Assembly: GCA_044229975.1 (NCBI GenBank)
Contig: JBGARZ010000020.1
Coordinates: 96,001-160,000 of the forward strand
Length of the DNA: 64,000 bases
Direction of reading: 5' to 3'
DNA from: Polyangiales bacterium
GTDB taxonomy: Bacteria > Myxococcota_A > Polyangia > Polyangiales > Ga0077539
A program made the translations under genes and the position numbers. The notes beneath the pieces are model-generated. The model was not told the DNA's origin, ran no database searches, and saw only the letters and a list, made by a program, of their open reading frames with translations. Below, piece after piece: positions 43,169 to 64,000 of the stretch (position 1 is the stretch's first letter; each line of letters opens with the position of its first letter).

Positions 43169-43250
43169 GCGAGGATGGCGGAATTGGCAGACGCACTAGC
43201 TTGAGGTGCTAGCGAGTAACATCGTGGGGGTTCAAGTCCCCCTCCTCGCA
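43169..43250 (+). tRNA. tRNA-Leu(GAG)
   Basis: Acceptor stem GCGAGGA/TCCTCGC, D-loop GGAATTGGCAGAC, anticodon arm CTAGC-TTGAGGT-GCTAG, long variable arm and GGTTCAAGTCC. CCA is not encoded. Confidence 0.96.
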
Positions 43251-43255
43251 CTCTA

Positions 43256-43298
43256 GAAGGCCTCGAAACTCCAAAGGTTTCGGGGCCTTCGTCATTTT
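43256..43298 (+). terminator. Intrinsic terminator-like hairpin between tRNA and integrase
   Basis: GAAGGCCTCGAAAC/GTTTCGGGGCCTTC stem followed by GTCATTTT. Confidence 0.75.
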
Positions 43299-43323
43299 GT
43301 TCACCCAAACGGTTCACCCAAAC
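43299..43323 (+). repeat. 12-bp direct repeat GTTCACCCAAAC, putative integrase arm sites
   Basis: Copies at 43299-43310 and 43312-43323, about 50 bp from the tRNA end. Confidence 0.6.
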
Positions 43324-44626
43324 CTCTGGGCAGGGGCAGCCGGAACCGCCTCGGGATGAGCTTGAGCTTCCGCATCTCGGCGCACTGCCGCTCCCAGCTC
43401 GGGACCGCGTACAGGTGCCGGGCGGTCTGGCTCGACGGGGCGTGCGTCCACCGGGCGGCGACGTTCTCCTCCATGCCGGCGTCCGCGCAGAGCGACGCGA
43501 GGGTGTGACGGAGGTCATGGATGCGGTGACCCTTGATCCCGCACGCCTCCAGGTCGCGCTGGAGGGCGTCCCACACCGCCTGCTGCCAGAGGGGGCCGCC
43601 AGCGCCCACGCGCGTCCCGCGCCGTCGCCCTGTTCCCGCGCGCACGGGCACGAGGAAGTCGGTGGGCGTCGGCGCGGCCCCGTACTCGGCCAGCCACCCC
43701 TCGCCCGCCCACCAGTCGAGCACCACGCGCAGGAGCGGGTGCTCGGGGACCTCGCGGCAGTTCTCCGTCTTCAACGGCGTGACCTCCCGCGTCCGGTGGT
43801 GGATCTGGCGGGCGATGGACACGCGCCGGAGCAGCGGCGTCTCTTCGTCGAGCAGGTCACACCATCGGAGCGCGACGGACTCGGACACACGCGCGCCGGT
43901 GAGCAGCAACAAGAACCACATCACCATCCAGCGCGGTTCGATCGACGGCTCGCCGAGCAACACCTCCACATCGCAGCGCGGCATCCGATAGTCGCGGCGA
44001 GCGATGGGGTCCGCGTCGATTGCCTGCGGGCGGATGTCGCTCGGGAGCACGGCCGTCGGGTCCTGCACGAGCAGCTTGTGGAACACAGCGCCACGGAGGG
44101 CGCGCGCCACGGGGTCGAGGGTGTTGCGGACGGTGCGCGGCGCGGGTGCGCTCTTGGCGCGTGCCGTCTTGCGCCCGCGCACCAGTTCGAGCCACCGCGC
44201 GATGTGCTGCGGGTCCACCTTCGCCACGGACAACGTTCCGAGGCTCCACCCGTCGGGCGCGGCCAGGGCGAGCGCCGCAACGGTGCGACGACGGTCCTTC
44301 GCGGCCTCGGGGTAGGTCTGCTTCGAGAGCCAGTCGTCGCACCAGCTCGCGACGGTCATCTCTGCCGAAGGCGGCGGAGCAACGGGTTCGCGTGCATCGG
44401 GTGCCCAGCTCCCTTCGTCGTACCGCTCCTGGAGGCGGTGGGCGTACCGCTTCGCGTAGCCCTCGTCGGCGCGCGTGGTGCCGGTGACCGGCTCACCCTC
44501 GCGGGTGACCGGATGCTCCAGGCGGGGCGACCGACGATCAAGCCCCTTGGGCTCGCGGGAGAGAGTGATGCGCGCGTACCACCGGCCCTTACGGTGGACG
44601 GCGCTGCCAGTGCGTGGGCGGGCCAT
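43301..44626 (-). CDS. Tyrosine recombinase/integrase
   Basis: TGARVSE (R), PLKT (K), HDLRHT (HxxR), WTH and HLY catalytic residues. Confidence 0.93.
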   Translation of the reverse strand: MARPRTGSAVHRKGRWYARITLSREPKGLDRRSPRLEHPVTREGEPVTGTTRADEGYAKRYAHRLQERYDEGSWAPDAREPVAPPPSAEMTVASWCDDWLSKQTYPEAAKDRRRTVAALALAAPDGWSLGTLSVAKVDPQHIARWLELVRGRKTARAKSAPAPRTVRNTLDPVARALRGAVFHKLLVQDPTAVLPSDIRPQAIDADPIARRDYRMPRCDVEVLLGEPSIEPRWMVMWFLLLLTGARVSESVALRWCDLLDEETPLLRRVSIARQIHHRTREVTPLKTENCREVPEHPLLRVVLDWWAGEGWLAEYGAAPTPTDFLVPVRAGTGRRRGTRVGAGGPLWQQAVWDALQRDLEACGIKGHRIHDLRHTLASLCADAGMEENVAARWTHAPSSQTARHLYAVPSWERQCAEMRKLKLIPRRFRLPLPRGLGEPFG

Positions 44627-44637
44627 CGGGCGGCACC

Positions 44638-44973
44638 TTAGCGGACGGAACGGCCAGACGCCGGTCGGTTGTCGATCTCTTCGTCGAGGTCCAGTTGATT
44701 GGCGGCACGCGCGCGGCGGACTCCGACGGTGGGCATGCGCTCGACCGCAGCGTCAACCGCAGCGGGCTCGACCCAAGTGTCACGGTGGTTGTCCTCGCGA
44801 AGGGAGACCGCTCGGGCAAGACACCACGCGCGAAAGGCACGGGTCGAACTGAAGCCACGACGGCTCGCCTCCGCCTCGATCCGTCGCCAGCGCGGAGCCT
44901 CCTGTAGCGGTGCCAGATCCCTGATGATGATGGCCACCGCGTCGCGTAGCGGGTCAGCCACGGTCGCCTTCAA
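44638..44973 (-). CDS. Small protein, possibly excisionase-like
   Basis: Directly upstream of the integrase. EAEASRRGFSSTRAFRAWC looks like a winged HTH. Start uncertain. Confidence 0.5.
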   Translation of the reverse strand: MKATVADPLRDAVAIIIRDLAPLQEAPRWRRIEAEASRRGFSSTRAFRAWCLARAVSLREDNHRDTWVEPAAVDAAVERMPTVGVRRARAANQLDLDEEIDNRPASGRSVR

Positions 44974-45135
44974 CGGGTGATCGGTCGCGGATCACAGAAG
45001 CCGCTGCGTCACTCGCGAACATGGAGGGCAGAGCACCACGAGGCCCTCCTTGGATGGCTCGCGGTTCCTTGGCGCGGCTTGCTTGAAATGGGGTCACGAG
45101 ACCTTTACGCCCTCAGCGCGGGTGGGCCAGACGAT

Positions 45136-48100
45136 TTACGACGCGAGGGTGACCGCGACGGGAGAGGTGGCGTCGAGGACCGCTTCCAATTGCGCCATGG
45201 CCTCATCGGTCAGGTCAGAGAATGCCTTCGGTCGTCCCTCACGATCGGGGTGAAGAATGTGTTGTGTCCGATGTTCCGACCACCGGAGGGCATGGTCGGC
45301 CTGGGCTCCAGCCACGTAGAACCGTCGTTGCCCACCGACCTTCGACTCCCGAAGCTCGACTCCGAAATGCTCCAGTGTGACCCGCACCAACCGGATCTGA
45401 TCCCGATCGATGTCTGCCCGGACGACGATTCCCAAGGTCTCCAAGATCCGACGGTGGCGCTTGGCGTATGCGGCCACGCGGCCATCCGTGTGAACTTCCG
45501 TCGCGGCCCCCCATATTGTCGGGTCACGCGGGAGACCTGCCGCATTGAGGATGTCCCCCCATGCGACGCAGTGAAGGTAGGAGAAGCTCGCGTGCGACGC
45601 GGGCACCCCTTGGCTCCGTTCTCGCCGGTCCATAGCCTTGACCGCGTCGGGATCGGTCACGAAGGCCCGGTACTTTGCGAACGCCCGCACCCGCGACGCG
45701 AGCTTGGTGTCTGCCACCTCGTTGACGGTCACACCAGGACCCAACAACTCCCGTGCTCGGTATTTCCGAATGGCGTCGGCGTCCTCCGGCGAGAGGTCGG
45801 TGCCGTCCAGCGCGTCGGCCTCGGTGTGCATCAGATCACGGGCGGACCAGATCCGACGGGCCTCGGCCTCGCGTACCCGTGCCGCGGTGTCCTTGTGGAA
45901 CTTCGTGACCTCTCGGCGTTGGCTCTGATCCAGGACGCCCGAGGCCTCCAGCGTGGCGGCGTCCTCGGTCTCGGTAACGCCCGCTCCCTGACCTCGCAGA
46001 TACGCCAGCAGCGCCCATCGACGGTCGCCGCCCGGGCCGCCGGTGCGACGCTCATAGGACAACACTTCCGCGTAGAGCCGGTTGTGGTCCGTACGCCAAG
46101 GATCACGGACGGCTGCCCCGTCGTGATAGACGATCTCGTCCACCACATGCTGTTGCACCGTGACCACCCCATCGGGGGAAAGCACGCGAACCGTCGTGTC
46201 CCCGGCGGCCAACAGCCCGTCGTAGATCCGCTGGGGGTCCGTCTCACGGGTCCCGCGTTGGCCTGGGGGGCAGTGAATCCGCACTTCGGTCGAACGAGGA
46301 TGACGGACGCGGTGAGCTGCCTGGAGAAGGTCGTGGACGGTGCCGACGCCCTCGGCGGAGTAGACGTAGATCTGGTCGTAGTGGTCACGAACCGTGATGC
46401 TGAATCCCGAGCCCAACGTGGCCGTGTAGATGAGGGCGTCGTACGGGATCAACGGGTCGTTGAGGAACGCCTTGACCCTCGGGTCGGCGCGGACGGTCGT
46501 CGAGTTGATGAGCAACACGGAGGCTTCGGGGCGAACCCGGAGGAGTTCATCCCGGAGCCACCCGACATCCATCGGCGGATCTTTCAGTTGCGTGCCCTTC
46601 ACCGTGCTCTGGCGTTTCGACTGGCAATGAACGACGAGGCGCTTCCCCGCGGCCCAATCGAGAAGAAGATCCCGGTCGGTCAAGGCCCGTACGGAGTCCA
46701 CCCGATACGTGAACATCGGGATCGCAGGCAAGCATCGCAATTCTTGATCGCGAGCGTCGTCGGGGTCGATTCCGAGAAGCTCCCGTGCAAGGCGGAAGGA
46801 CCACGGATCGAGGTCGGCGTCCGCGATCACCACCTGTTCTGCGTTCTCGCAGAGACCTCGCAGTTGCCGGTGAACAGCCTCCGACTGAGGTCCTGAGAGC
46901 GTGGCACTGAAAAGGTGTCTGAGCGCCTGGGTGAACTCGTCCAACACCACGAGGGCCGGGCGGATCGGCACCACGGTCCCGTCGGGTGTGGTGGTGCATG
47001 AGACGATCCGAAGCACCGAGTCCAGGCAGACGGCGAGGTCGCCCTCGACCCGGCGGGGTACACCGGGGTCCAGATAGCAGATCACCTGAAACCTCTGTGC
47101 CGCCTGCTGGGCGATGGTCTGGCGGTGGCTGATCACCAGCACCGAGCCGGTGGCTCCCGAGGCACGGACCGCGTCGATGGCCCTTCGAATGACCTCGGTC
47201 TTCCCGGTGCCCTTGTCCGCGTGGAACCCGGTGAGGCGTGCCCGCAGTGGCTCGTACGGCAGATACCGACCCTCCACGAGCTCGTCGGCCCGATACACCC
47301 GCAGTCCCCCGACGGCTTCGAGGTCCCGCATGAGGGAGTTCCGAGAGGTGTTTTCGACGCCCGAGGGGGGGGTCGCACAATGGTCTCTTCTATTATTGTT
47401 GACACCATTTGTGCGACCCCCCCTAACTCCTTTGAGTGACACAGCATTTTCGGCTTCCGCCGCTTCTGTGCGCCCCCCCTTGGTCGCCGCCGCCGAGGGG
47501 CACCTCGAAGATCCCGGTGGCCGTCTCTCGAATCCCTCTGGGAACCCGTCGCGGTGCCAGAAACTCGTGTTGAGCTTCCACGACCGAAGCCACACGCGGC
47601 CATCGGCGTCGTGCCGAAGGACGCACGAACTCCCATCGAGGTAGGTTTCGCCAGCCCGGCGCGGTTCCACTTGCCACGGGTTGCCGATGGGGCTGAACTC
47701 CGACCCCACAGGCACGTTCCCACGGGTCCACGTCAGGAGGTCAACGCCCGCCGTCGGGTGGAGCACCTGCGAGAAGTCCACGGTCACGTTCGCCCAAGAA
47801 GCAGCGCCGCTCCCCTTGCCCGTCGTGGTGTCCCGGACCTTCGACGCCCGTCGCATCTTCGCAGCGATGTCGCCGGGCACGGGCAGCGACGGCCATCGGG
47901 CCCGGTGAGACGGCTTGTCCACGGCCATGACCGTCTCTGCTTCGGACAGAATCGGCGCGAGGTCGAGGAGGGTGTCCGCAGCCTCGCCGCACCCACGAGC
48001 AGGCGGAACCCCGCCCCAATCACCTTCGCCCGCGATTCGGGATGCGGGGTGCGACGGCAGGTAGAAGAGCCGCCCGTCCATCGCACGGGAGTCACAGGAG

Positions 48101-48717
48101 GGTTCCCCTGGTTTCACGGAGTCGAGGGGCAGACCCGCATCGATCAACTTCCGCCGCCCCCACCACCACGCCCGACAGGCGTCCTCGAAGGTAGTCGGTG
48201 CGGCGAGCAAGAGCACCACTCGAACGGATGCGTACCCGTCTTTGCACGACCACGTCGTCCAAACCAGACGGCGGAGGCCGATGAAGGCCCTGTTGATGAT
48301 ATCCGACACGTCCTGGACAGAGAGCCCAACTGCGTCGAGATCGAAGGGGAGCATCACCCAGAGAGCCTGCTGGCATGAGACACCCCGTTTGGCACCGTTC
48401 GGGAGGCGATATGGTAGAACGCCCCGGGCGCACTCCTTCATCTTCAGGGGGTTCTTCTTCGTATGGGCTTTGTCTGCCCATGTGAACCTGTCCTTCTTGT
48501 TCGCGATAGCCTGTGGGAACAGAAGGGCTCGTACCGAGAGCCCCCAACCCTGCGGGGAAACGTCGATCACGACGTGATCCACTCGCCGCGGACACTCCAT
48601 TCTTGGTGCGATATCGAGGACGACTTCGACGGCTTCGTTCGCATTGGAAGGACTATCGTTTGTGGTATTGTGAGTTGTCACGTCGTTGGTCCTTGCGAGC
48701 CCCGCCCTTGTCGCCAA
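45136..48717 (-). CDS. Replication protein: primase-like N-terminus fused to SF2 origin-binding helicase (CyRepA1/UL9-like)
   Basis: FDLD, TTWS, RVVL and FYLPS (primase-like). ADKGTGKT, ISHR, LDEF, ADADL, TATLGSGFSI and QAAHRVR (helicase). Start uncertain. Confidence 0.8.
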   Translation of the reverse strand: MATRAGLARTNDVTTHNTTNDSPSNANEAVEVVLDIAPRMECPRRVDHVVIDVSPQGWGLSVRALLFPQAIANKKDRFTWADKAHTKKNPLKMKECARGVLPYRLPNGAKRGVSCQQALWVMLPFDLDAVGLSVQDVSDIINRAFIGLRRLVWTTWSCKDGYASVRVVLLLAAPTTFEDACRAWWWGRRKLIDAGLPLDSVKPGEPSCDSRAMDGRLFYLPSHPASRIAGEGDWGGVPPARGCGEAADTLLDLAPILSEAETVMAVDKPSHRARWPSLPVPGDIAAKMRRASKVRDTTTGKGSGAASWANVTVDFSQVLHPTAGVDLLTWTRGNVPVGSEFSPIGNPWQVEPRRAGETYLDGSSCVLRHDADGRVWLRSWKLNTSFWHRDGFPEGFERRPPGSSRCPSAAATKGGRTEAAEAENAVSLKGVRGGRTNGVNNNRRDHCATPPSGVENTSRNSLMRDLEAVGGLRVYRADELVEGRYLPYEPLRARLTGFHADKGTGKTEVIRRAIDAVRASGATGSVLVISHRQTIAQQAAQRFQVICYLDPGVPRRVEGDLAVCLDSVLRIVSCTTTPDGTVVPIRPALVVLDEFTQALRHLFSATLSGPQSEAVHRQLRGLCENAEQVVIADADLDPWSFRLARELLGIDPDDARDQELRCLPAIPMFTYRVDSVRALTDRDLLLDWAAGKRLVVHCQSKRQSTVKGTQLKDPPMDVGWLRDELLRVRPEASVLLINSTTVRADPRVKAFLNDPLIPYDALIYTATLGSGFSITVRDHYDQIYVYSAEGVGTVHDLLQAAHRVRHPRSTEVRIHCPPGQRGTRETDPQRIYDGLLAAGDTTVRVLSPDGVVTVQQHVVDEIVYHDGAAVRDPWRTDHNRLYAEVLSYERRTGGPGGDRRWALLAYLRGQGAGVTETEDAATLEASGVLDQSQRREVTKFHKDTAARVREAEARRIWSARDLMHTEADALDGTDLSPEDADAIRKYRARELLGPGVTVNEVADTKLASRVRAFAKYRAFVTDPDAVKAMDRRERSQGVPASHASFSYLHCVAWGDILNAAGLPRDPTIWGAATEVHTDGRVAAYAKRHRRILETLGIVVRADIDRDQIRLVRVTLEHFGVELRESKVGGQRRFYVAGAQADHALRWSEHRTQHILHPDREGRPKAFSDLTDEAMAQLEAVLDATSPVAVTLAS
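47364..47424. repeat. Intragenic inverted repeat with AT-rich spacer, candidate origin
   Basis: AGGGGGGGGTCGCACAATGGT-(CTCTTCTATTATTGTTGAC)-ACCATTTGTGCGACCCCCCCT. Confidence 0.8.
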
Positions 48718-48812
48718 ACAAGGGGGCGGGGCATCGCCTTTTGGGGGTTATGGGTTCATCTGGATGAGCGTTCGGTTGTCCGCGAGAGGGCACCGCCACC
48801 GCGCCACACGCC

Positions 48813-49031
48813 TCATGGCGTCCCCTCGATGAGCCTCTCGACCGCGAGCACATCCACCCTCACGGCCCGACCCAGACGGAGCGGGGCGATGCCCAGCCGA
48901 CGAAGGGTTCTCTCGACCGTTCGCGGGCTGCACTTCCACCTCGCGGATGCCTGCTCGACCGTCATCCACAGGCGGTCGGTGTTCGGGGCCTGGGAGGGGG
49001 ACGAGGGGGGTGTCGGGACGGGTGTGGTCAT
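48813..49031 (-). CDS. Excisionase-type HTH protein
   Basis: WMTVEQASARWKCSPRTVER...LRLGRAVRV and a GGAGGAG RBS. Confidence 0.8.
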   Translation of the reverse strand: MTTPVPTPPSSPSQAPNTDRLWMTVEQASARWKCSPRTVERTLRRLGIAPLRLGRAVRVDVLAVERLIEGTP

Positions 49032-49528
49032 CGGCTTGCTCCTCCAAGGGCGCGCCGATAGGCCAAGTACCGAGGGGACGGCCCCGGACGGCGCGCGGTG
49101 CCGTGCGTTCGTCGCGGGTGCGTCGGGTGAAGGGGAGTCGGTGCGGGTCATGAACCCTTTACGCACTCGACGTGGGGGGACGGTCGAATTCGTCCTCCAT
49201 CTGAACCGACATCGACTCGGTGGTCTTGAAACGTGATTTCGTCCCGCCGGGACTACTCGGGGGACGTCGGGGGGACGACAGACGCCCTGGGGGCATCAGG
49301 CAAAAGGGGGGTTTGCAGGGGTTTAGTGACCTTTTCGAGGTGGCTCCCCCCGGTTCATAAGAACCGCAAAGATAAGTTCCGACCCCCCCGGTCCTACCCC
49401 CAAAAGGCTCTATCGATCCGGCAAGGATTTTCTGAGGGCCTTGGCTTCAATGGGGTTCGGCCTGCCTTCACCGCAGCCTGCCCCGCGCCCGGCCTCGGGG
49501 AGGTTCCGTGGGAATCGGCAGGGCGGCA

Positions 49529-49595
49529 GTCGATCTCGCTAAACACCGCCCCGCGAGAGTTGTGAGGAGGTGGGAGGGGAACGGCTCGCTGACCC
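49529..49595 (+). promoter_or_regulatory. Conserved upstream motif, copy 1
   Basis: GTCGATCTCGCTAAACACC-N8-AGAGTTG, purine-rich tract, ACGG, GCTGACC. Lies 50 nt before the MoxR ATG. Confidence 0.75.
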
Positions 49596-49644
49596 ATTGT
49601 GGGCAGGAGTGTCGTCGCCTCATCCCCACCGAAAACAACGACCT

Positions 49645-50787
49645 ATGACCACGACCCTCACATCCAACGGCACGCTCGGCCCCACCCTCGACGCGACCAA
49701 CCTCGCCACCGTGCTGGGCCACGTCCTTGAGGCGAACGCCCTGGCGACCGCCTACTGTGAGCTCCCGACGCCCGTGTGCATCTGGGGCCCGCACGGCATC
49801 GGCAAGACCGCCCTCGTGAGGGAGCTCGCTCGCACCCGGGGTTGGGGCTTCGTCGTCGTAGCACCGGCACAGATCGAGGAGCTCGGGGACCTCCATGGTC
49901 TGCCCACGCGCATCGACGGCGGGACCGGCGAAGCCAAGGACGGGCGCACGGGCTTCCTGCCGCCCACCTGGGTCCCGACCCAGAAGGGCCCCGGCATCCT
50001 CCTGTTGGACGATTTGAACCGCGGGGACGTTCGCGTGTTGTCCGCCCTCATGCAGCTCCTCCAGACGCACCGCCTGTACTCCTGGTCGTTGCCTCCCGGA
50101 TGGCAGATCGTCTGCACCGCGAACCCGGACAGCGGGTCGTACGCCGTGACGCCGATGGACGACGCGATGCTCACCCGGATGGTGCACTTCACGATGACCT
50201 TCGACGCGAGGGTCTGGGCGCGGTGGGCCCACGACGCCGGGATCGACCCCCGCTGCATCGAGTTCGTGACGACGTACCCCGAGGCTGTTCTTGGTCGGCG
50301 TACGACGCCCCGCACGCTGGTGCAGTTGTTCCGCCTCGTCGCCCCGATCCGCGACTTCAACAGCGCCCGCGAGCTCGTCTCCAGGCTCGCGCATTCGACC
50401 CTCGACGTTGGTACCGCGGCGTCGTTCGTGAGCTTTGTCTGTGTCGAACAACACCAGCTCGCCACCGCCAAGGACATCCTCGACGCCGCCACCCCTGCGG
50501 ACGCGCGCAAGCACATCATCAACGCCGCGACCGACCACACTCAGGGAGGGCGGCTTCGCATCGACCGTGTGGGGCTGGTGATCGCTCGCATCGAAGAGGT
50601 GATCGAGGCCGACGACTACACCCCCGGCCCCCGGCACCCGGCCAATCTCTCGGCCCTACTCGCGAGCGCGGAGGTGCCGCGGGACATGGCGATGCGCCTG
50701 CACCGCGCCCTCGCACGACGGGGCCTCGGGCATCTCGTGCGAGACCGCGCCGTTGCGAAGCGCCTCCTCAACGAGGGGGCGTCGTGA
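49645..50787 (+). CDS. MoxR-like AAA+ ATPase
   Basis: WGPHGIGKT, DLHGLP, LLLDDLNR, VCTANP, AMLTRM and TTPRT. Confidence 0.88.
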   Translation: MTTTLTSNGTLGPTLDATNLATVLGHVLEANALATAYCELPTPVCIWGPHGIGKTALVRELARTRGWGFVVVAPAQIEELGDLHGLPTRIDGGTGEAKDGRTGFLPPTWVPTQKGPGILLLDDLNRGDVRVLSALMQLLQTHRLYSWSLPPGWQIVCTANPDSGSYAVTPMDDAMLTRMVHFTMTFDARVWARWAHDAGIDPRCIEFVTTYPEAVLGRRTTPRTLVQLFRLVAPIRDFNSARELVSRLAHSTLDVGTAASFVSFVCVEQHQLATAKDILDAATPADARKHIINAATDHTQGGRLRIDRVGLVIARIEEVIEADDYTPGPRHPANLSALLASAEVPRDMAMRLHRALARRGLGHLVRDRAVAKRLLNEGAS

Positions 50788-51998
50788 TGGTGGCCCGTGA
50801 GCCCGTCACCATCACCGACGATGAGTGCTGCGAGCTCCTCGCGACCGCGTCGTGGGACCTCGGCCGCAAGCTCCCCTTCTACGGGCACGTCCTCGCCGCG
50901 TTCGACCGCGTCGTTGGTGTCTCCGTTCCCACCGCCGCCGTGGGTGCGGGTCACGAAGGGCAGCCCACGCTCTTCCTCAACCCAACGTTCTTCGGGGCCA
51001 CGCTGCGACGCGACGAGCACCGCATCGCGGTCCTCGAACACGAGGTCCTTCACGTGGTCTGCGGCCACTTGCGGTTGAACACCGCCGAGATGCCCGACGC
51101 CCGGCGAAGGGCCATCTCGATGGACATCGTGGTCAACCAGTACGTTTCGCACCCGCTCCCACGCGGCGCGGTCACCCTCGCGGCGTTCAAGGACTTCCCC
51201 GCCGGGCTCACCGTCGAGAGCTACTACCGCCTGTTGTCCAAGATCCCCGACGAGGAGCTCGCGAGGTTCGGGCGGGACCTTTCCCGCGGGCACAACCGCT
51301 GGAGCGACCCTCAAACAGACGAGAGCGGGCAACGGCTCGTGGACACGCTCGACGAGATCGTCACCGAGGCCCTGCGTCGGGCTGAACGCGATGGGAGCTT
51401 CGACTCCCTCGCCAAGCCGCTGCGGCTGTCGCTCTTGCGGGGTCGTCTCTCTCCCGTGGGTGCCACCGACTGGCGGCGTGCCCTGCGGCTCTTCAGTGCC
51501 CGCGCCCTCCGTGCTGGTGTGCGCGCCACCAACCAACGGGAGTCCCGCCGCTACGGAGCCTCCACGGGCGACTGGCGGGGTCCAATCGTGCCGGGCCTCC
51601 GTCGCGGTCGCAGACCCTCCTTGGCGGTGGCCATCGACACGTCGGGTTCGATCCCGATCGACACTGTCGGGAGGTTCTACGAGGAGGTCGGGCGCATCGT
51701 CGCCGCCGGAGCCACCGTCCACATCATCGAGTGCGACCTCGCGGTGCAGCGCACCTACCCGTGGACAGGGGTGCCGCCCACGCACTCCACGGGCGGCGGT
51801 GGGACGAACTTCGACCCCGTCTTCCGGTGGCTCATCAACGAGGGCCGCCGGTTGAACCTCTCGGGCTGCGTGTACCTCACCGACGGTCACGCCCCGCGCC
51901 CTCTTGTACGCCCGCCGGTCCCGGTGCTCTGGGCGGTCACCGCCAACGGGACGAACGCCAACACGGCCTTCGGGCCGAGCATCTCCCTGCCCGCGTAG
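50787..51998 (+). CDS. DUF2201-type metallopeptidase + vWA-like protein
   Basis: HEVLH, DIVVNQ, AIDTSGS (MIDAS), GGGGTNFDPVF and YLTDG. TGATG coupling to the ATPase. Confidence 0.88.
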   Translation: MVAREPVTITDDECCELLATASWDLGRKLPFYGHVLAAFDRVVGVSVPTAAVGAGHEGQPTLFLNPTFFGATLRRDEHRIAVLEHEVLHVVCGHLRLNTAEMPDARRRAISMDIVVNQYVSHPLPRGAVTLAAFKDFPAGLTVESYYRLLSKIPDEELARFGRDLSRGHNRWSDPQTDESGQRLVDTLDEIVTEALRRAERDGSFDSLAKPLRLSLLRGRLSPVGATDWRRALRLFSARALRAGVRATNQRESRRYGASTGDWRGPIVPGLRRGRRPSLAVAIDTSGSIPIDTVGRFYEEVGRIVAAGATVHIIECDLAVQRTYPWTGVPPTHSTGGGGTNFDPVFRWLINEGRRLNLSGCVYLTDGHAPRPLVRPPVPVLWAVTANGTNANTAFGPSISLPA

Positions 51999-52001
51999 TT
52001 T

Positions 52002-52059
52002 TCGCTAAACACCCCCCTCGCAGAGTTGTTAGGGGTTGGAAGGGGAACGGTTCAGACCG
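52002..52059 (+). promoter_or_regulatory. Conserved upstream motif, copy 2
   Basis: TCGCTAAACACC-N8-AGAGTTG...AGGGGAACGG...GACCG, starting 3 nt after the vWA stop. Confidence 0.75.
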
Positions 52060-52128
52060 ACGCGGGCACCGGGTGGTGCTCGTCGTCGCGACGACCATCC
52101 CGCGCCCGCCATGGTCGAACGCTCGCGT

Positions 52129-52194
52129 GTCGATCTCGCTAAACACCCACATCCCAGAGTTGATAGGGGGGAAGGGGGACGGAACGCTGACCGA
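52129..52194 (+). promoter_or_regulatory. Conserved upstream motif, copy 3
   Basis: GTCGATCTCGCTAAACACC-N8-AGAGTTG...AGGGGGACGG...GCTGACCG. Confidence 0.75.
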
Positions 52195-52321
52195 TACGAC
52201 GCACGGGCGGTCGTCACGGAGAGCCCCGCAACACCCGCTTCGAGAACCCCCGACCATTCACCGAGAGCACGCGCCCTTGCGCTCTCTCACCCCTCTCTAT
52301 TCACCGAAAGGAACCGTCTCC

Positions 52322-54414: not shown

Positions 54415-54972
54415 ATGAACAACAAGCCACTCTCATCTGTTCCGTTCCCGAACTCCACCCCGGAAGGGAGGTTCTCCCTCGACGACTCCGACGTGCTGCC
54501 CATCAAGTACGCCGGGCACGCGGTGGTGGGCGTCCTGGTGGGGTGCCGTCCTCAGTGGGTCTCTGTCGCCGTGCGAGACGGGACGTGTGGCGGGTACCAC
54601 CTCGCACCCCGGCAACCGCGCGACCGCCGCGGCATGATGGTCGCCCTCGCGGGCCACGTCGCCCTGTCGATCTACGCCGAGAGGGCAGTCATGGCTGCGG
54701 ACCTCGCCACATGGGCCGAGGTCACCGACCTCGCCAGCTTCGCAGACCTGTTCACCCCGGAGGTGCGTGACGACGATCGACAGTTTCGCGACCTCTACGA
54801 GCGCCTCTGCGCCGAAGTCCGGGAATTGCTCCTGGCGCACTGGGCGAGCGTCCTCGTCCTCGCCACCGAGCTCGCAGACTGCGGGCGACTCGAAGGCCCC
54901 GAGCTCACCCGGATCGTGCGGGGGGTCACGTCCGCCCGCCGTCGTCCCGAACTGACGACGCCCGCCGGATGA
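54415..54972 (+). CDS. Degenerate FtsH/M41 peptidase-like domain protein, paralog 1
   Basis: IKYAGHAVVG (cf. HEAGHAVV), MVALAG and LLAHWASVLVLATEL...LEGPEL. Confidence 0.65.
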   Translation: MNNKPLSSVPFPNSTPEGRFSLDDSDVLPIKYAGHAVVGVLVGCRPQWVSVAVRDGTCGGYHLAPRQPRDRRGMMVALAGHVALSIYAERAVMAADLATWAEVTDLASFADLFTPEVRDDDRQFRDLYERLCAEVRELLLAHWASVLVLATELADCGRLEGPELTRIVRGVTSARRRPELTTPAG

Positions 54973-55113: not shown

Positions 55114-56352
55114 ATGACCACCCATCAAGCCTCCCCCGTCCCGTCGTCCATCCCGACTGAGATCGACGTGAAGATCGACGACCTCAAGTTCGACCCCAAG
55201 CTCCAGACGCGGGCGAAGCCCCACGACCGGCAGTACGTCATGGGCCTCTGCGAGGTGATCCGGGAGCGAGGGTTCCAGGATTCCATCGTGGTCTTCCGTG
55301 ATCCCACCGACGGGAGCCAATGGGTGGCGGACGGCCACGCCCGGGCGGATGCCGCGAGGTCGGCCGGATGCGCCACGATCCGGGCCCGCGTCCACGAAGG
55401 TGGACTTCGAGAGGCCTTCGAGTTCGCCCTGGGAGCCAACGCCACGCACGGTGTCCGCCGGACCAACGCGGACCTTCGCCACACGGTACTGACGGCTCTC
55501 GCAGACCCCGGTACGAAGACGTACACGAACGAGAAGATCGCTGATCTGTGTCACTGCTCCGACCACTACGTCGGCGTTCTCCGCAACAAGCTGGCGGCGA
55601 CGAGTGGCAACCCGGCGGAAGCTCGCCGCACGGGCAAGGATGGGAAGTCCTACCCGGCGAGGCGTCCCCGCAAGGCGGCAGTGCCGACCAGATCGAAACC
55701 GGCCAGAAGTTCCTCGGTCGCGGTGTCCCCTCCGCAGACCAGGACCGACTCGCTCGCATCGACGGACGGGGCAGCGGGGTCCAGCATCGCCATCACCAAG
55801 GGAGTGCCCACGGAGGCGAGCCACGATGGTCTGAGCGCCGAGGTGACGACGCCGACCAACTCGACGCACGTCATCCACGAGGTCGTCGGGGTCATCCCGG
55901 TTGAGCCGCCCGCGGCCCTCCTGGGAGAAGGCCCCCACGTGGTCGCCACCCCGAGTGAGGGTGAGCCCACGGCGATGCCGACCGACGCCACGGTGGTCTC
56001 CACCCCGGAGGACGTGATCCCGTCCATCACGATTCCCTCGGCGCTGGGCGAGGACGAGGAAGCTCTGTTGGGACAGCTCCTCAGCATCTGCGCGAAGATT
56101 CACGCCCGTCGCCAGCGCCAACCGGAGGTGACCGTCCGGGAGGACCTCGTTCGGGCGGCCCGCGAGAAGGTCGCGCGATGCCTGGACGAGTGCTACCCGG
56201 ATACGCGGGACACCGTTCACGGGAAGCTCACCAACGCCCCGGCCCGGTTCTACGAGATGATGGGTTACAACCCCCGTCCCGGTCACGGGAGTGACGAGGC
56301 AATTCTGGGCGTGCTCTCGGCGGAGATCGACCAGGAGCGCCTGACCACCTGA
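55114..56352 (+). CDS. ParB N-terminal-like domain protein with HTH and low-complexity linker
   Basis: IVVF...WVADGHAR, ANATHGVRRTNAD and TNEKIADLCHCS. AGGAG RBS. Confidence 0.78.
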   Translation: MTTHQASPVPSSIPTEIDVKIDDLKFDPKLQTRAKPHDRQYVMGLCEVIRERGFQDSIVVFRDPTDGSQWVADGHARADAARSAGCATIRARVHEGGLREAFEFALGANATHGVRRTNADLRHTVLTALADPGTKTYTNEKIADLCHCSDHYVGVLRNKLAATSGNPAEARRTGKDGKSYPARRPRKAAVPTRSKPARSSSVAVSPPQTRTDSLASTDGAAGSSIAITKGVPTEASHDGLSAEVTTPTNSTHVIHEVVGVIPVEPPAALLGEGPHVVATPSEGEPTAMPTDATVVSTPEDVIPSITIPSALGEDEEALLGQLLSICAKIHARRQRQPEVTVREDLVRAAREKVARCLDECYPDTRDTVHGKLTNAPARFYEMMGYNPRPGHGSDEAILGVLSAEIDQERLTT

Positions 56353-56629: not shown

Positions 56630-57490
56630 ATGACGACCAACGACGCTATCTCGAATCCGGTCTCGGCCACGCTCCCTGTGCCGGAGGTACCCTCGCTCCT
56701 TCTCTTCCGTTCCACACTGGCAATCAAGATGGCCGGACACGCGGTGGTCGGAGAGGCCATGGGCCGTCGCCCGAGGTCGGTGTGGTTGAATCCCCGTGAC
56801 GGGATGTACGGAATTTACCGCATCGATAGGCCCAAAGCGGACGCTGAACTCAGCGCGATGGTCGCCCTCGGTGGGTACGCCGCCCTGAGCATCGCGGATC
56901 TGATGGACGAGCCCACGTCCAAGGGCTTCAGGGAGTCTGCTCTGTGCACCGACGCACACCACGCCTCCATGTACTTTCCCACGGAGGAGAACAACCGCCC
57001 TGCACTGGCGCTGCGGCTCCTCCCCTTCGTTCACGACTTGCTGCTTCGGCGATGGAACAGGGTGAAGATCGTCGCCGCGTACCTCGATGAACACGGAATG
57101 ATCGACGGTCCGACCCTGGGACGTCTCGTCTCTGCGGCCGACAACATCGAAGTGCCGGGCCCTCAGATCGAGGATGCTCAAGTGTTTCCGATCGCCAGTC
57201 CCGCGGTCCCCATGAAGGCCGTCGATGCGCATGAGAGTGCCGTGGTCCGAGACGCAGAGAGCACGCAGGTCAACCCCGCCAAGCCCCAACGGATCGCAAG
57301 CGAGTACGATGTGGATCTCCTCCGTGAGGTTCTCGAAGGCATCGCATCCAAGGAGGTGTCCGTCGAGGAAGCGGTGGCCTTCCTGAAGCCCACGCCGATG
57401 CAAGAGATCGCCCTTCGTTCTTTCGCCCGTGAGGGTTCCACCCTCGCCAAGGCCCTCGACGCCTTCACCTACACCCCGTCGCAGAAGTAG
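56630..57490 (+). CDS. Degenerate FtsH/M41 peptidase-like domain protein, paralog 2
   Basis: IKMAGHAVVG, MVALGG and LLRRWNRVKIVAAYLDEHGMIDGPTL, plus an extra C-terminal tail. Confidence 0.65.
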   Translation: MTTNDAISNPVSATLPVPEVPSLLLFRSTLAIKMAGHAVVGEAMGRRPRSVWLNPRDGMYGIYRIDRPKADAELSAMVALGGYAALSIADLMDEPTSKGFRESALCTDAHHASMYFPTEENNRPALALRLLPFVHDLLLRRWNRVKIVAAYLDEHGMIDGPTLGRLVSAADNIEVPGPQIEDAQVFPIASPAVPMKAVDAHESAVVRDAESTQVNPAKPQRIASEYDVDLLREVLEGIASKEVSVEEAVAFLKPTPMQEIALRSFAREGSTLAKALDAFTYTPSQK

Positions 57491-59154: not shown

Positions 59155-59343
59155 ATGAACGGAACCGAGTACGGGCACTGCGCCAAGGGCGGCCACACGA
59201 AGGACCCCGACCAGAACTACGTGTGCGGCAAACACCTCAGCCCCGAGGTCCCCAGTCTCTACACCCACTGCGCCAAGTGCGGCATCAGCTTGGATGAGGA
59301 GTCACGCCGTTACGTGTGCGATGCGTGCCTCGTCCCACGATAG
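59155..59343 (+). CDS. 62-aa Cys/His-rich Zn-finger miniprotein
   Basis: GAAGGAG RBS and internal duplication HCAKGGH..YVCGKH / HCAKCG..YVCDAC. Confidence 0.7.
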   Translation: MNGTEYGHCAKGGHTKDPDQNYVCGKHLSPEVPSLYTHCAKCGISLDEESRRYVCDACLVPR

Positions 59344-59374
59344 TAGCCGCCCGTCCCTCCAGGAACGCCCCGGC

Positions 59375-60139
59375 ATGATCCAGCCCTTCGCCCAAAACAC
59401 GCTCGACCGGCTCTGGGCGACCTACACTCCCGCGGACACCACGAAGGGCTCGCTCCTCCAACCCGAGTACCTCCTCGCGGCCGAGGGGCCGTACAAGGTG
59501 TACTTCGCCCCGCTCGGTGTCGTCCCGGAGGCGACCGCCCGCGTAGTCCTCCTGGGCCTGACCCCAGGCCTCGCCCAGACCCAACTCGCAGCCAAGACCT
59601 TCCTCAACGCCTCCCCTGAGGTGCGGGCCGACACGATCGAGTTCGGACGACGGCTCCGTCGGGAGGTGGCGTTCGGGGGGTCGATGCGTGACCTCCTGTG
59701 CAGGATGCTGGACGAGATTGACCTCCCCAGGTTGCTTGGCCTCTCGCGGAGCCAAGAGATCTTCGCGGCTGACGGGGACGACGTCGCCACGACTTCCGCG
59801 TTGGTCTACCCAGTATTCACCGGCCCGACGCTGAAGAATTTCGGCGGCTCTGCCGACCTCGCCCGCGTGGAGCTGTTCCGCGAGATGCTGACGACACTCC
59901 TGGCCCCGCGGCTGGCCGCCGCCCCGCGGGCGCTGATCATCCCGTTCGGGAAGGCCGCAAGCACCGGGGTGCGCTTCCTGGTTGAGCAGAACGCCGTGGA
60001 CGAAGCGCAGGTGCTCTGGGAGTTCCCGCACCCCTCGGGGGCCAACGGCCACCGTGTCCGGCAGTTCGCCCAGGCCAAGGCGGGGCTCCGCAGCCGCGCC
60101 GTTGCGTGGGCGATGGCATCGTGGCCGAAGGGCCGGTAG
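59375..60139 (+). CDS. Uracil-DNA glycosylase superfamily protein
   Basis: VVLLGLTPG (motif A-like), AFGG, IIPFGK and FPHPSGAN (motif B-like). Confidence 0.75.
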   Translation: MIQPFAQNTLDRLWATYTPADTTKGSLLQPEYLLAAEGPYKVYFAPLGVVPEATARVVLLGLTPGLAQTQLAAKTFLNASPEVRADTIEFGRRLRREVAFGGSMRDLLCRMLDEIDLPRLLGLSRSQEIFAADGDDVATTSALVYPVFTGPTLKNFGGSADLARVELFREMLTTLLAPRLAAAPRALIIPFGKAASTGVRFLVEQNAVDEAQVLWEFPHPSGANGHRVRQFAQAKAGLRSRAVAWAMASWPKGR

Positions 60140-60562
60140 GTCGGCGCGGTGAGAACGAGACGCTCGTCCGCGCCCTGGACGACCTCCAGAGGGAGGGGCG
60201 GATCGCGAAGGTCAGCCGGGGCTGGAACCTCGTGGCGGGTGAGGCCGACGACGAGGAGACCGCCAGCACGGTGTCGGACTGACCTCTCCCCGTTCCGTTC
60301 CCTGCGACACCATGCGCGCCCAGAACCGGAACAGAGTGCGGCCCGTCCCTCGGGAGAGACCGACGGTCGAGGGCTCTGTTCCGCGTACTCGGCTGCACCC
60401 TCGCCGGGTGCGGCCGCAGCCGGTGCACGGGAGGACGGGCAGAGGCTTTCATCGGGCGGAAACACTCCCGCTGCGTGCCGCACCTGAGGTAGCTTCGCGC
60501 CCGGGGAAGCGTCGGAACCTTCGCCACCAGCACCAACGACGCGCCGTGGAGATGATCGCCGC

Positions 60563-63500
60563 ATGATCCAGCTCGAACAGCTCCAACCCCGCGCCGCGAT
60601 CCGGGGCATCGTCCCGGACGCGCTGGTCGTCGTGGTCAGCGTCCAGTGGTTCGGCTCCGAGGCGCTCGAACTCACGTACAAGACCTCCACCGGGAAGGTC
60701 GCCAACGAGCTGCTGTACCGCGACGACGAGGCCCGCCTGGACGTCGTCGAACAGGGCCGCCCCTGGAGCTTCGACGGCGACGGTGCCCTCTTCCGCCTCG
60801 TCTCCGAGGCGCAGCGCATCCGCCTCGCGCACCTCTTCGACCCCGTGCTCGCCGTGCATACCTCCGTGGTCGATCCGCTCCCGCACCAGATCACGGCGGT
60901 CTACGAGGCCATGCTGCCCCGGCAGCCGCTGCGCTTCCTGCTGGCCGACGACCCGGGTGCGGGCAAGACCATCATGGCGGGCCTGCTCATCAAGGAGCTC
61001 ATCGCCCGCGGCGACCTGCAACGCTGCCTCATCGTGTGCCCCGGCAGCCTCGCCGAGCAGTGGCAGGACGAGCTCTACCGGCGCTTCCACCTGCCGTTCG
61101 AGATCCTCACCAACGACAAGGTCGAGGCCGCCCGCACCGGCAACTGGTTCCTTGAGACCAACTTGGTGATCGCCCGCCTCGACAAGCTCTCACGCAACGA
61201 GGACATCCAGCAGAAGCTCCAGGCCCCCGACTGCCGGTGGGATCTCGTGGTCTGCGACGAGGCCCACAAGATGTCCGCCACGGTCTTCGGCGGCGAGACC
61301 AAGTACACCAAGCGCTACCGCCTCGGGCAGCTCCTCTCGACGCTCACGCGGCACTTCCTCCTGATGACGGCGACGCCGCACAACGGCAAGGAGGAGGACT
61401 TCCAGCTCTTCATGGCGCTCCTCGACGGGGACCGCTTCGAGGGCCGCTTCCGCGACGGCGTGCACGTCGCCGACGCCTCCGACCTCATGCGCCGGATGGT
61501 GAAGGAGAACCTGCTCAAGTTCGACGGCACGCCCCTGTTCCCCGAGCGCATCGCGTACACGGTCCCCTACAAGCTCTCGGACGCCGAGGCGCACCTGTAC
61601 AAGGCCGTCACGACCTACGTCCGCGAGGAGTTCAACCGCGCCGACGCCCTGGAGAACGACAAGCGCGCGGGCACCGTCGGCTTCGCCCTCACCGTGCTCC
61701 AACGCCGTCTGGCCTCGTCGCCCGAGGCGATCTACCAGTCGCTCCACCGACGACGCGAACGCCTGGAGAGCCGCCTCCGTGAGCTGGAGGTGCTCCAGCG
61801 CAGCGGTCAGACCGCCCCCGTCCTGGCGGCGTCGGTGCCCGCCCTCGACGCGGACGCGGTGGAGGACCTCGACGAGGCCCCGGACACCGAGGTCGAGGCG
61901 ATCGAAGAGGAGGTCCTCGACCAAGCCACCGCGGCGCGGTCGATGGCGGAGTTGAAGATCGAGATCGAGACGCTGAAGGCGCTGGAGTCGCTCGCCCTCA
62001 CGGTCCGCCGCAGCGGCAACGACACCAAGTGGCGCGAGCTCGCCAGCCTCCTCGGCGAGATCTTCACGGACTCGTCCATCACGAACCGTCTCGCGGAACC
62101 GAAGGTTCAGTACGGCCACGCGATCCCGCCCCCCAAGGCGTCGCCCCACCAGAAGCTGGTGATCTTCACCGAGCACCGCGACACGCTGAACTACCTCCAG
62201 AACCGCATCACGACGCTCCTCGGGCGCAAGGACGCGGTGGTGATGATCCACGGCGGGGTGGGACGTGAGGACCGGCTGAAGGTCCAGGAGGCGTTCCGGC
62301 ACGACCCCGAGGTGCAGGTTCTCCTGGCCACCGACGCCGCGGGGGAGGGCATCAACCTCCAGCGCGCCCACCTGATGGTGAACTACGACCTCCCGTGGAA
62401 CCCCAACCGCCTGGAGCAACGCTTCGGGCGCATCCACCGCATCGGCCAGACCGAGGTGTGCCACCTCTGGAACCTCGTGGCCGAGGAGACCCGCGAGGGC
62501 GATGTCTACCGGAAGCTCCTCGACAAGCTCGAACAGGCCCGCAAGGCGCTCGGCGGGCAGGTGTTCGACGTACTGGGCAAGCTCCAGTTCGAGGGGGAGT
62601 CGCTGCGGGAGCTGCTCATCAAGGCCATCCGCTACGGGGACCAGCCCGATGTCCGGGCACGCCTCACGGTGGCGGTGGAGAACGCGCTCGACCGCACCCA
62701 GATCCAGAACCTTCTGGAAGACCACGCGCTCGCCCACGACGTGATGGATGTCGGACGGGTCCAACGAATCCGCGAAGACATGGAGCGCGCGGAGGCCCGT
62801 CGTCTCCAGCCCCATTACATCGAGTCGTTCTTCGCGCAGGCGTTCAAGGGCCTCGGGGGCACGGTCAAGCAGCGTGAGCCTCGCCGCTACGAGATCACCC
62901 ACGTCCCCGCCCCGGTTCGCAACCGAGACCGCCTCATCGGCATTCGCGAGCCCGTGCTCCCACGGTACGAGCGCATCGCGTTCGAGAAGGCCCTCATCGC
63001 TCCCCCAGGGCAGCCCCTGGCGGCCTTCGTGTGCCCTGGGCACCCGCTCCTCGACGCGGTGCTCGACCTCACGCTCGAACGCCACCGCGACCTCCTCAAG
63101 CGCGGCGCGGTGCTCGTGGACGAGCGCGACCCTGGCACGCAGCCCCGGGTGCTCTTCTACCTCGAACACGCGATCCAGGACGCAAGCCTCACCCGCACCG
63201 GGGAGCGCCGCGTCGTCTCGAAGAAGATGCTCTACGTCGAACTCGACGGAGAGGGCCACGCCCGCCATGTCCACTACGCGCCGTACCTCGACTACCGGCC
63301 CCTCGCCGCGGGCGAGCCCGGCGTGGACGCCCTCCTCGACCGGCCCGAGTGTGCCTGGATCGAGCGCGAGATCGAGTCGAAGGCCATGGGCCACGCCATC
63401 GCCCACGTCGTCCCCGAGCACTTGAAGGAGGTGCGGGACGCGAAGCTCGCGCTCCTCGCCAAGACCGAGGCGGCGGTGAAGGACCGGCTGACCAAGGAGA

Positions 63501-64000
63501 TCACCTACTGGGACCACCGGGCCGAACAGCTCAAGATGCAGGAGCAGGCGGGCAAGCCCAACGCCAAGCTGAACTCGGACGAGGCCCGCAAGCGCGCCGA
63601 CGGCCTCCAGGGAAGGCTCCAGAAGCGCCTGGAAGACCTCAAGCTCGAAGGGAAGATCTCCCCGCTCCCCCCCGTAGCACTCGGGGGCCTCCTGGTGATC
63701 CCGGCGGGCCTCCTCGCCGCGATGAGCGGACGGGCACCGCTGACGACGGGCAAACCCGTGGACACCCAGGTGAGCGCGGCCCGAGCTCGCGCCGTGATCA
63801 TGGACATCGAGCGTCGTCTCGGGTTCGAGCCCACGGACCGGGAGTTCGAGAAGCTCGGCTACGACATCGAGAGTCGTGTGCCGGGTACCGGCAAGCTGCG
63901 CTTCGTCGAGGTCAAGGGGCGGGTCGCGGGCGCGGACACCATCACGGTGACCCGCAACGAGATCCTCTACTCTCTCAACAAGCCCGGCGACTTCATCCTT
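60563..64000 (+). CDS. SNF2-family helicase with C-terminal DUF3883/NOV nuclease-like domain, 3' end outside the window
   Basis: Translated by hand: PLPHQ, LLADDPGAGKT, DEAH, TATPH, ATDAAGEGINLQ, WNPNRLEQRFGRIHRIGQ and GYDIES...FVEVKGR...TRNE. Confidence 0.92.
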   Translation, partial: MIQLEQLQPRAAIRGIVPDALVVVVSVQWFGSEALELTYKTSTGKVANELLYRDDEARLDVVEQGRPWSFDGDGALFRLVSEAQRIRLAHLFDPVLAVHTSVVDPLPHQITAVYEAMLPRQPLRFLLADDPGAGKTIMAGLLIKELIARGDLQRCLIVCPGSLAEQWQDELYRRFHLPFEILTNDKVEAARTGNWFLETNLVIARLDKLSRNEDIQQKLQAPDCRWDLVVCDEAHKMSATVFGGETKYTKRYRLGQLLSTLTRHFLLMTATPHNGKEEDFQLFMALLDGDRFEGRFRDGVHVADASDLMRRMVKENLLKFDGTPLFPERIAYTVPYKLSDAEAHLYKAVTTYVREEFNRADALENDKRAGTVGFALTVLQRRLASSPEAIYQSLHRRRERLESRLRELEVLQRSGQTAPVLAASVPALDADAVEDLDEAPDTEVEAIEEEVLDQATAARSMAELKIEIETLKALESLALTVRRSGNDTKWRELASLLGEIFTDSSITNRLAEPKVQYGHAIPPPKASPHQKLVIFTEHRDTLNYLQNRITTLLGRKDAVVMIHGGVGREDRLKVQEAFRHDPEVQVLLATDAAGEGINLQRAHLMVNYDLPWNPNRLEQRFGRIHRIGQTEVCHLWNLVAEETREGDVYRKLLDKLEQARKALGGQVFDVLGKLQFEGESLRELLIKAIRYGDQPDVRARLTVAVENALDRTQIQNLLEDHALAHDVMDVGRVQRIREDMERAEARRLQPHYIESFFAQAFKGLGGTVKQREPRRYEITHVPAPVRNRDRLIGIREPVLPRYERIAFEKALIAPPGQPLAAFVCPGHPLLDAVLDLTLERHRDLLKRGAVLVDERDPGTQPRVLFYLEHAIQDASLTRTGERRVVSKKMLYVELDGEGHARHVHYAPYLDYRPLAAGEPGVDALLDRPECAWIEREIESKAMGHAIAHVVPEHLKEVRDAKLALLAKTEAAVKDRLTKEITYWDHRAEQLKMQEQAGKPNAKLNSDEARKRADGLQGRLQKRLEDLKLEGKISPLPPVALGGLLVIPAGLLAAMSGRAPLTTGKPVDTQVSAARARAVIMDIERRLGFEPTDREFEKLGYDIESRVPGTGKLRFVEVKGRVAGADTITVTRNEILYSLNKPGDFIL

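Follow-up and report, generated by a model that had tools for sequence, protein, structure and literature searches.

The 64,000-nucleotide stretch of a Polyangiales genome analyzed here (G000:C26:96001–160000; the host assembly is 10 Mb and 93% complete) is called the window, and its own numbering is used below. From position 43169 to its end it contains part of a complete, bounded ~36-kb mobile island integrated at a tRNA-Leu gene. Leftward genes for an integrase, a small protein (ORF111), a primase-helicase (Rep), and a helix-turn-helix (HTH) protein stand beside a rightward arm that opens with MoxR, vWA, DUF932, and leucine-rich repeat (LRR) genes. The main feature of the island, absent from the initial annotation of this DNA, is a 48-bp promoter-like box that leads the rightward arm and recurs in jumbo phages. 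We see about an even chance that this arm is switched on when a box-bearing jumbo phage infects, which would make this a phage-triggered island.

The box (TCGCTAAACACC-N9-GAGTTG) was the one outstanding family in a search for repeats, with three plus-strand copies starting at 49529, 51995, and 52129. Copy 1 (49529–49576) stands before MoxR, copy 2 (51995–52042) overlaps the vWA stop codon, and copy 3 (52129–52176) precedes DUF932. Scored with a matrix built from five phage sites only, they reach 50.6, 54.5, and 44.3 bits, respectively; the next best site in the 10-Mb host outside this 44–55-bit range scores 17.3. Against the site in phage contig G301, the island copies are identical at 38, 39 (copy 2), and 33 of 48 bases. 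Even its bare core, CTAAA-N15-RTTG, is confined in the 10-Mb host to the three island places (reversed control, eight), so the host appears to be without such a regulon. The exact box is present in two of 31 family genomes and, among the matches listed for 401 genomes of the order, only in G000 (three) and G006 (one). Matches with one or two mismatches, seen in 123 of the 401 order genomes, were not counted as sites, as they occur at about the control rate.

Sigma28 (FliA/SigD) promoters have the consensus TAAA-N15-GCCGATAA. The box shares with them the −35 element (CTAAA) and the 15-nt spacing, and differs in the −10, which on the island departs from GCCGATAA to read GTTG(T/A)TAG (GTTGTGAG in copy 1); the sites in phage contigs G301 and G303–G305 have this same −10, and both groups have an upstream GTCGATTTC element in addition. 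We therefore infer that the box is a sigma28-type promoter that has kept the TAAA-N15 spacing and changed its −10 from GCCGATAG to GTTG(T/A)TAG. Three other readings were dropped: sigmaA, because the −10 is not TAnnnT; extracytoplasmic function (ECF) sigma, on spacing relative to the ECF consensus; and an RNA structure, because short-hairpin folding is inconsistent across six sites.

In IMG/VR the box was found in four contigs, three of them independent: G301 (one site), G303 (three in tandem), and G304 and G305 (two each), the last two being near-identical at the box locus. CheckV rates these contigs as 4%–12% complete, i.e., fragments of ~420–520-kb genomes, and G301 and G303 encode baseplate, ribonucleotide reductase, UvsX, clamp, and RuvC genes; all are predicted to be myophages of roughly 450 kb. 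Three AT-rich viral matches (L068–L070) are likely due to chance, L067 is marginal (15–16 bits), and when cultured phages were searched with the box by blastn, the single match was also a chance one. LR745208.1, a 485-kb genome that aligns at the DNA level with G301 and G303 (UvsX 68%), is the nearest complete relative; it contains 48 sites conforming to the consensus CGATTTCnCTAAA-N15-GCCGATAGGG (CTAAA-N15-RCCGATA; control 0), 23 of them in the first 50 kb and most lying 11–27 nt before an ATG, ahead of small genes. These sites match the canonical sigma28 consensus in full. The variant −10 was not found in LR745208.1, nor the canonical −10 in the stretches of G301 and G303–G305 examined, and this split between lineages suggests that the island copies one lineage's version. 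A FliA-like gene was not detected in LR745208.1, which may thus run its early genes on a host flagellar-type sigma factor. This genome (L169–L178) is unannotated; 36 tRNAs were called in it, one having an anticodon that reads TAA.

A candidate reader of the box lies in the phages themselves. In G303, G304, and G305 the boxes cluster within ~0.3–0.8 kb upstream of a gene for a 275-aa sigma-like protein, which is preceded by its own sigmaA-like promoter. The protein has 58 homologues, matches a profile of host sigma factors with a hidden Markov model E-value of 0.002–0.009, and has a predicted fold with a confidence score (pLDDT) of 82. Group 2 jumbo phages are reported to encode sigma factors (PMC7824862). 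Other lineages of the same jumbo clade (L190:9650–10000, L192:9650–10000, L191, L193, and L194) have different promoter types before the sigma-like gene, GTTACA-N16-CGTG (ECF-like in look) and sigmaA-like, behind a shared GTCGATT(T)C element. In G303 (~34–35.5 kb) the gene at L117:14005–14826 and the one next to it form a tandem sigma-like pair, and a leader AACCCAAGGGTCT(G/T)(A)GACC..GGGAC, possibly an RNA or operator element, is kept before this gene in several phages.

The box could also be read by the host, where two FliA-like sigma factors score 165 and 104 bits against a cut-off of 189.6. Their genes are on C20 (156 kb) and C38 (842 kb). The island may then hold a captured promoter with no role in phage sensing, one read by a host FliA-like factor in a developmental or stress state, or a relic; we regard this as possible but doubtful. 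It would fit with LR745208.1, where the canonical consensus is used and no FliA-like gene is detected, as well as with the variety of promoters that precede the same sigma-like gene in other phage lineages. On the other hand, the core motif is not found at any host gene, the host shows no enrichment of canonical sigma28 sites (0 exact; three versus four in the control at one mismatch), and a relic would not be expected to conserve the −35 and −10 boxes and their spacing while the spacer sequence varies. Two host FliA-like genes without a host regulon for either −10 make a phage-supplied factor the likelier reader of the box, as judged from sequence, and this factor need not be the 275-aa protein.

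Besides the host sigma factors, several observations weigh against a phage-triggered arm. The box stands before just one of 19 MoxR loci, and ahead of DUF932 there is one weak case among 17 upstream regions. The island proteins have no close phage homologue (a scan of viral contigs with MoxR was empty), and the 60 spacer segments compared gave no convincing CRISPR match between phage and host, the best covering 20 of 21 nt. The leaders on the island measure ~80–170 nt, versus 10–35 nt in phage. As for the sigma-like protein, it has no match to PF04542, and none of its Foldseek rows reaches E ≤ 0.001, even though RNA-polymerase or sigma entries make up 47 of 50. The gene is also present in five other phage contigs (13%–59% complete) that have neither form of the box and yet keep the region-2.4 stretch VWAYQSA..ELRRW nearly unchanged, so the sigma-like protein may not be the reader. 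Finally, the boxes face away from the integrase, excisionase-like, and rep genes, an orientation that gives no sign of the phage controlling excision or replication.

Phage triggering of the arm would work as follows. An infecting box-bearing jumbo phage would supply the sigma factor that reads the box, and this factor would transcribe MoxR–vWA and DUF932–LRR as a phage-triggered response, the products of which would interfere with the phage or serve the spread of the island. The Hma system at the distal end would be a separate, standing defense, and the integrase with ORF111 and/or the HTH protein would excise a circle that is then copied by Rep.

Sister islands show the box in other settings. 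One in G006, at the same tRNA, has a box before an 84%-identical MoxR and carries an integrase and ORF111, with no Rep between ORF111 and the box; another, at a tRNA-Gly gene in G041, has a weaker box (20.8 bits) before DUF932. We also compared the island with four of 17 sequencing runs, from four studies and including one RNA run, using assembled contigs only, with matches to related strains at 80% likeness. A 9.8-kb Logan contig of run X6 extends from the integrase and ORF111 (~95%) through 3.9 kb unlike Rep to the HTH gene, box 1, MoxR, vWA, a single box, and DUF932. Other sample contigs join 49594 to 52200, 52053 to 52200, and 52039 to 52173, one box region skipping to the next, and coverage of the arm is far better than that of Rep. 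The initial annotation had proposed comparing Rep synteny across Myxococcota: sister elements do exist at the same tRNA, but Rep is swapped or absent in them while the integrase, ORF111, and MoxR arm are kept. The swapped Rep and the box-to-box joints define a family by integrase-ORF111 plus a box-led arm, with Rep and cassettes exchangeable, and the box repeats are likely recombination points at which gene cassettes are added or dropped. We put forward only tentatively the broader proposal of a myxobacterial island family that parasitizes or fights ~450-kb jumbo myophages through a copied lineage-specific sigma28-type promoter, the boxes doubling as cassette-exchange sites and the primase-helicase being swappable.

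Two further groups of elements were seen in relatives. A 62-kb composite island at the same tRNA (G004:C132:243940–305608; L020–L023) has BREX-like genes, a 962-aa open reading frame (ORF) without family near attL, and, at its attR end, a Rep of the archaeo-eukaryotic primase (AEP) type with a Cys-rich tail, a HEAGH peptidase-like ORF, an ORF111 homologue, and an integrase. Integrative elements recurring beside defense genes (L071–L090) carry Replic_Relax, a TraD-like coupling protein, a sigma54-type activator, and DUF932; others of this set have Prim-Pol/D5 or DUF3854 replicases and a DnaN beta-clamp homologue.

The borders of the island are well defined. The tRNA-Leu(GAG) gene (43169–43251, plus strand) is the integration target, and its 3' end holds the 33-bp attL core (43228–43260, plus), which is repeated exactly at attR on contig C37 (C37:1798–1830) within an extended repeat of 70 bp at 90% (C37:1798–1867). 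This direct repeat of the tRNA 3' end, with an integrase at one end, is that of a site-specific integrated element and bears out the tRNA-Leu island initially proposed. Just inside attL, GTTCACCCAAAC occurs twice in direct orientation (43299–43323, plus), and these repeats are predicted to be arm sites of the integrase. The 10-Mb genome has three exact copies of GTTCACCCAAAC, two inside attL and one inside attR (C37:1695–1719), the latter accompanied by an inverted near-copy; such an arrangement at both ends is typical of integrase arm sites. The same GTTCACCCAAAC pair is found next to the integrase of a sister element in G002.

The end of C26 and the start of C37 both fall within one 1.55-kb insertion sequence, presumably an IS66, other copies of which are on C11, C23, C31, and C37. 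It is bordered by an identical 8-mer on C26 and C37 and splits a single pentapeptide-repeat gene, so the two contigs very probably join across it. The distance from attL to the insertion sequence is 32,668 bp and from there to attR 1,651 bp, for a total of ~35.9 kb including the insertion sequence; the island thus extends ~14 kb plus one insertion sequence past the window end. GC content is 0.715 in the flank and 0.61–0.70 in the island. The yebC-tRNA locus is kept in eight of eight same-genus genomes, and in relatives is often occupied by unrelated islands, several with BREX-like or other defense genes. The pentapeptide-repeat gene (L001:15594–15895, L002:139–490) is broken with an 8-bp duplication, and between it and attR lie an XRE HTH gene and a 217-aa lipoprotein-like ORF. 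Past attR (G000:C37:1870–25458) the GC content is again low and insertion sequences abound, which may mark an older island at this site. An Rfam scan matched the tRNA only. Elsewhere in the genome, a tRNA-Leu cluster (CAA, GAG, CAG; G000:C19:132218–132612) resembles a phage-type tRNA array.

The leftward backbone was confirmed as initially annotated, with matches in Pfam, PHROG, CyRepA1, Atlas, and HTH_17/TIGR01764. It begins with a 441-aa tyrosine integrase (43301–44626, minus strand; PF00589, phrog_1), whose homologues (47%–48% identity) are found at the same tRNA in G006 and G008. ORF111 (44638–44973, minus), a 111-aa protein without family match, is a likely directionality factor; its homologues sit upstream of integrases in G002, G004, G006, G016, and G033. 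Rep follows (45136–48717, minus; probable start 48597), and then the excisionase-like HTH protein (48813–49166, minus; HTH_17, TIGR01764). The divergent region before the rightward arm, described as ~600 bp, does exist, its length being ~490–615 bp depending on the HTH start chosen. Similar 35-nt stretches (GCGTAAAGG, minus strand) occur at 45091–45125 and 49145–49179, upstream of ORF111 and HTH, and GCGGGCGTAA is also found ahead of the G006 ORF111 and of one arm gene (zincin-like ORF b), possibly a second, leftward class of promoter. An intergenic segment (45059–45137) has an 80%-identical, 79-nt counterpart on the tRNA-Gly island of G041 and is a candidate origin, origin of transfer (oriT), or terminator.

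Rep combines an AEP-type primase-polymerase with a CyRepA1/UL9-like SF2 helicase. Its C-terminal 630 aa match the CyRepA1 model (NF042913) with 187.1 bits over aa 494–1123, short of the 200-bit cut-off at near-full model coverage (positions 3–593 of 595), and also phrog_4913. The N-terminal 350 aa have RepB_primase and BT4734-like as their nearest named Atlas clusters (0.94), and the catalytic residues of an AEP (DxD, S..R/H, D) are present as D126, D128, S157, R166, and D209, with conservation of 86% or more across 28 rows, by which the N-terminus is assigned as an AEP primase-polymerase; a single-sequence fold of it was uninformative (pLDDT 36). Whereas the helicase part is thus like CyRepA1-family replication proteins, the N-terminus comes from an AEP family of only 34 clusters in 1.84 billion representatives (two of 301 order genomes), which is elsewhere joined to VapE-like or Cys-rich domains. 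Its homologues are modular, with a related SF2 domain in 11 of 34 tested, a VapE-like helicase in one, and a Cys-rich tail in seven. An AEP of this family follows an integrase and excisionase in L035 and adjoins terminase genes in L034, a phage-like contig. A word search with the whole Rep found no sequence other than itself; Rep and its AEP were not found in viral-contig scans, and a first metagenome scan was likewise empty.

With integrase, xis-like, and primase/helicase genes in one block, the backbone recalls phage-inducible chromosomal islands (PICIs), P4-like satellites, and PICI-like elements (PLEs), which the island also resembles in tRNA-end integration, lack of virion genes, and defense cargo. 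An extension of phage triggering, which we consider unlikely, is that the island is a true jumbo-phage satellite similar to PLE: infection would induce the arm, and the island would excise, replicate through its AEP-helicase, and be packaged in phage particles. The intact att and arm sites and the phage-type boxes would agree with this, as would the absence of transfer genes from the island and of VirB4 from the 93%-complete genome (positive control matched in seven of 14). The MoxR and peptidase-vWA pair carried by group 2.2 jumbo phages has moreover been proposed as a virion-assembly chaperone (PMC7824862). Against it, library scans of 17–27 selected island and flanking ORFs per library (some short ORFs were outside the set) found no head, packaging, relaxase, or type IV secretion gene in Pfam, NCBIfam, or PHROG, in agreement with the initial annotation; no head or packaging PHROG was matched among 17 ORFs, and terS, cpm, sid/psu, and capsid genes were absent from the Pfam and NCBIfam results as well. 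Rep and MoxR are without a match in viral contigs, the boxes do not face the replication arm, the G006 sister has no Rep between ORF111 and MoxR, and 36 kb is large for a satellite, about twice the usual size. The island further differs from PICI, P4-like, and PLE satellites in that no terS, capsid-size, or AlpA/Stl gene was found, in being apparently under a copied phage promoter rather than derepression, and in having a ~450-kb myophage as its putative partner. PLE is reported to respond to a lytic phage (10.1101/2021.07.12.452122). Helper-embedded PICIs, as described in PMC10111431, are similar in that expression is tied to the transcription program of the helper; they sit in cis within a late gene of the helper, while the island sits in a host tRNA with its own copies of the phage signal.

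The rightward arm, all on the plus strand, starts with a MoxR AAA+ ATPase (49645–50787; AAA_5, phrog_1297) and its DUF2201 metallopeptidase-vWA partner (50787–51998; DUF2201_N plus DUF2201, with a HEVLH motif), followed by the DUF932-family protein (52322–53401; weak in Pfam, phrog_1362 E 1.6e-19) and the LRR protein (53398–54270). These families, like the uracil-DNA glycosylase (UDG)-fold and SNF2-DUF3883 proteins further on, were matched as first annotated. MoxR-vWA homologues occur in 16 of 200 relatives (E ≤ 1e-60), mostly adjoining LRR-type genes, and in three of three loci tested the gene after vWA resembles the N-terminus of the island LRR gene. It therefore appears that DUF932 and two boxes were inserted within a MoxR-vWA-LRR module, exactly at the vWA stop. 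LRR-MoxR-DUF2201-(LRR) operons (L120–L138) are widespread in the order and form a candidate undescribed conflict system; PADLOC gave no match for the MoxR-DUF2201-LRR copies of the island.

Next come a degenerate zincin-like ORF (a; 54415–54972, KYAGH), a protein with a ParB-like N-terminal domain (55114–56352), a second zincin-like ORF (b; 56630–57490, KMAGH; 53% homologue on the G041 tRNA-Gly island), a 62-aa Cys-rich ORF (59155–59343), and a UDG-superfamily protein (59375–60139). Here the initial labels fared unevenly. The ParB assignment stands on a weak ParB_N match, and the predicted zinc finger is indeed a Cys-rich ORF but matches no family. The two "dead M41" domains were recognized as degenerate, but neither has a Pfam match, so the M41 label was not retained; an ORF of G004 with a weak likeness (28% over 50 aa) has an intact HEAGH at the place of KYAGH/KMAGH, and "degenerate zincin-like" seems to fit both. 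The intergenic segment 56350–56620, 74% identical over 271 nt on the G041 tRNA-Gly island and with a perfect hairpin, is another candidate origin, oriT, or terminator.

HmaA, an SNF2 helicase with a NOV_C/DUF3883 nuclease (60563–64000, running on to 64141; PADLOC), closes the window, and beyond it lie HmaB, HmaC, and a GmrSD_N/HEC-05-like gene. The PADLOC scores (1,712, 1,488, and 1,157 bits for HmaA, HmaB, and HmaC) and the adjacent, ordered genes make this a complete HmaABC system, alike in all three genes and their order to the known one and with no notable difference. Hma cargo at the distal end is thus already known; PMC11232893 shows that HmaA is anti-phage and reports its C-terminal nuclease as essential. 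The expectation of defense cargo was accordingly right, and that of host manipulation found no support, since the MoxR-vWA-LRR module also occurs elsewhere in the order and the SNF2 gene is part of Hma. A second Hma system in the genome (G000:C36:238–258 kb; 36%–51% identity) has ~5.6 kb inserted between hmaB and hmaC.

With a tRNA that is a hotspot for unrelated defense islands and a known defense system on board, this could be an ordinary defense island or an integrative mobilizable element that relies on conjugative elements for transfer in trans, with an incidental arm. DUF932 homologues (44%–78%) are found in ten of 30 family genomes and, in the regions examined, on integrase-bearing elements usually beside defense genes. 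These elements are of two kinds, with Replic_Relax and a coupling protein or with another primase-helicase, an assignment resting on one or two examples per kind, and several of the close homologues in the family are on elements of the former kind. The island resembles those in its tyrosine integrase, HTH excisionase, DUF932, and defense cargo, but it has a primase-helicase instead of the relaxase/coupling pair and a phage-type box instead of the sigma54-type activator gene. The island yielded no relaxase or coupling gene, and VirB4 was not found in the genome; a scan for Replic_Relax elsewhere in G000 gave no match, its positive control being silent as well. A mobilizable element would also leave unexplained the box in common with jumbo phages, and we hold it to be decidedly unlikely.

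A decayed prophage remnant is largely refuted and most improbable. The same AEP family does adjoin terminase genes in L034, and several arm genes have PHROG families, but no damage is seen in the two att sites, the arm sites, or the integrase motifs, and the layout is common to sister elements in the runs of four studies. No structural gene or remnant was found in the 36 kb, no prophage head, tail, or lysis module is present, and no full phage or conjugation module was found downstream as far as attR.

The putative regulatory link between the phage box and the island arm is new, and well supported as sequence. We found no literature on an island copying a jumbo-phage promoter, no relevant work on Myxococcota jumbo-phage satellites, and nothing pairing DUF2201 with MoxR or DUF932 with a leading region, or on LR745208, with DUF932 in passing mentions; most subscription papers and supplements were outside the search, which makes this weak evidence of novelty. 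Most explanations of how defense islands and satellites detect phages invoke protein sensors or inactivated repressors. A copied phage promoter, if true, would be a simple trigger at the DNA level, a sensor made of DNA alone, and its bearer would be a satellite of a jumbo phage; if instead a host sigma reads the box, this would be an ordinary Hma-bearing defense island with an unusual Rep. The finding hints at the host group of an uncultured jumbo-phage clade, and for MoxR-DUF2201-LRR and DUF932 it raises a testable function, either against phages or in a satellite. It also offers a rule by which others may be sought, namely to scan islands for jumbo-phage promoter motifs.

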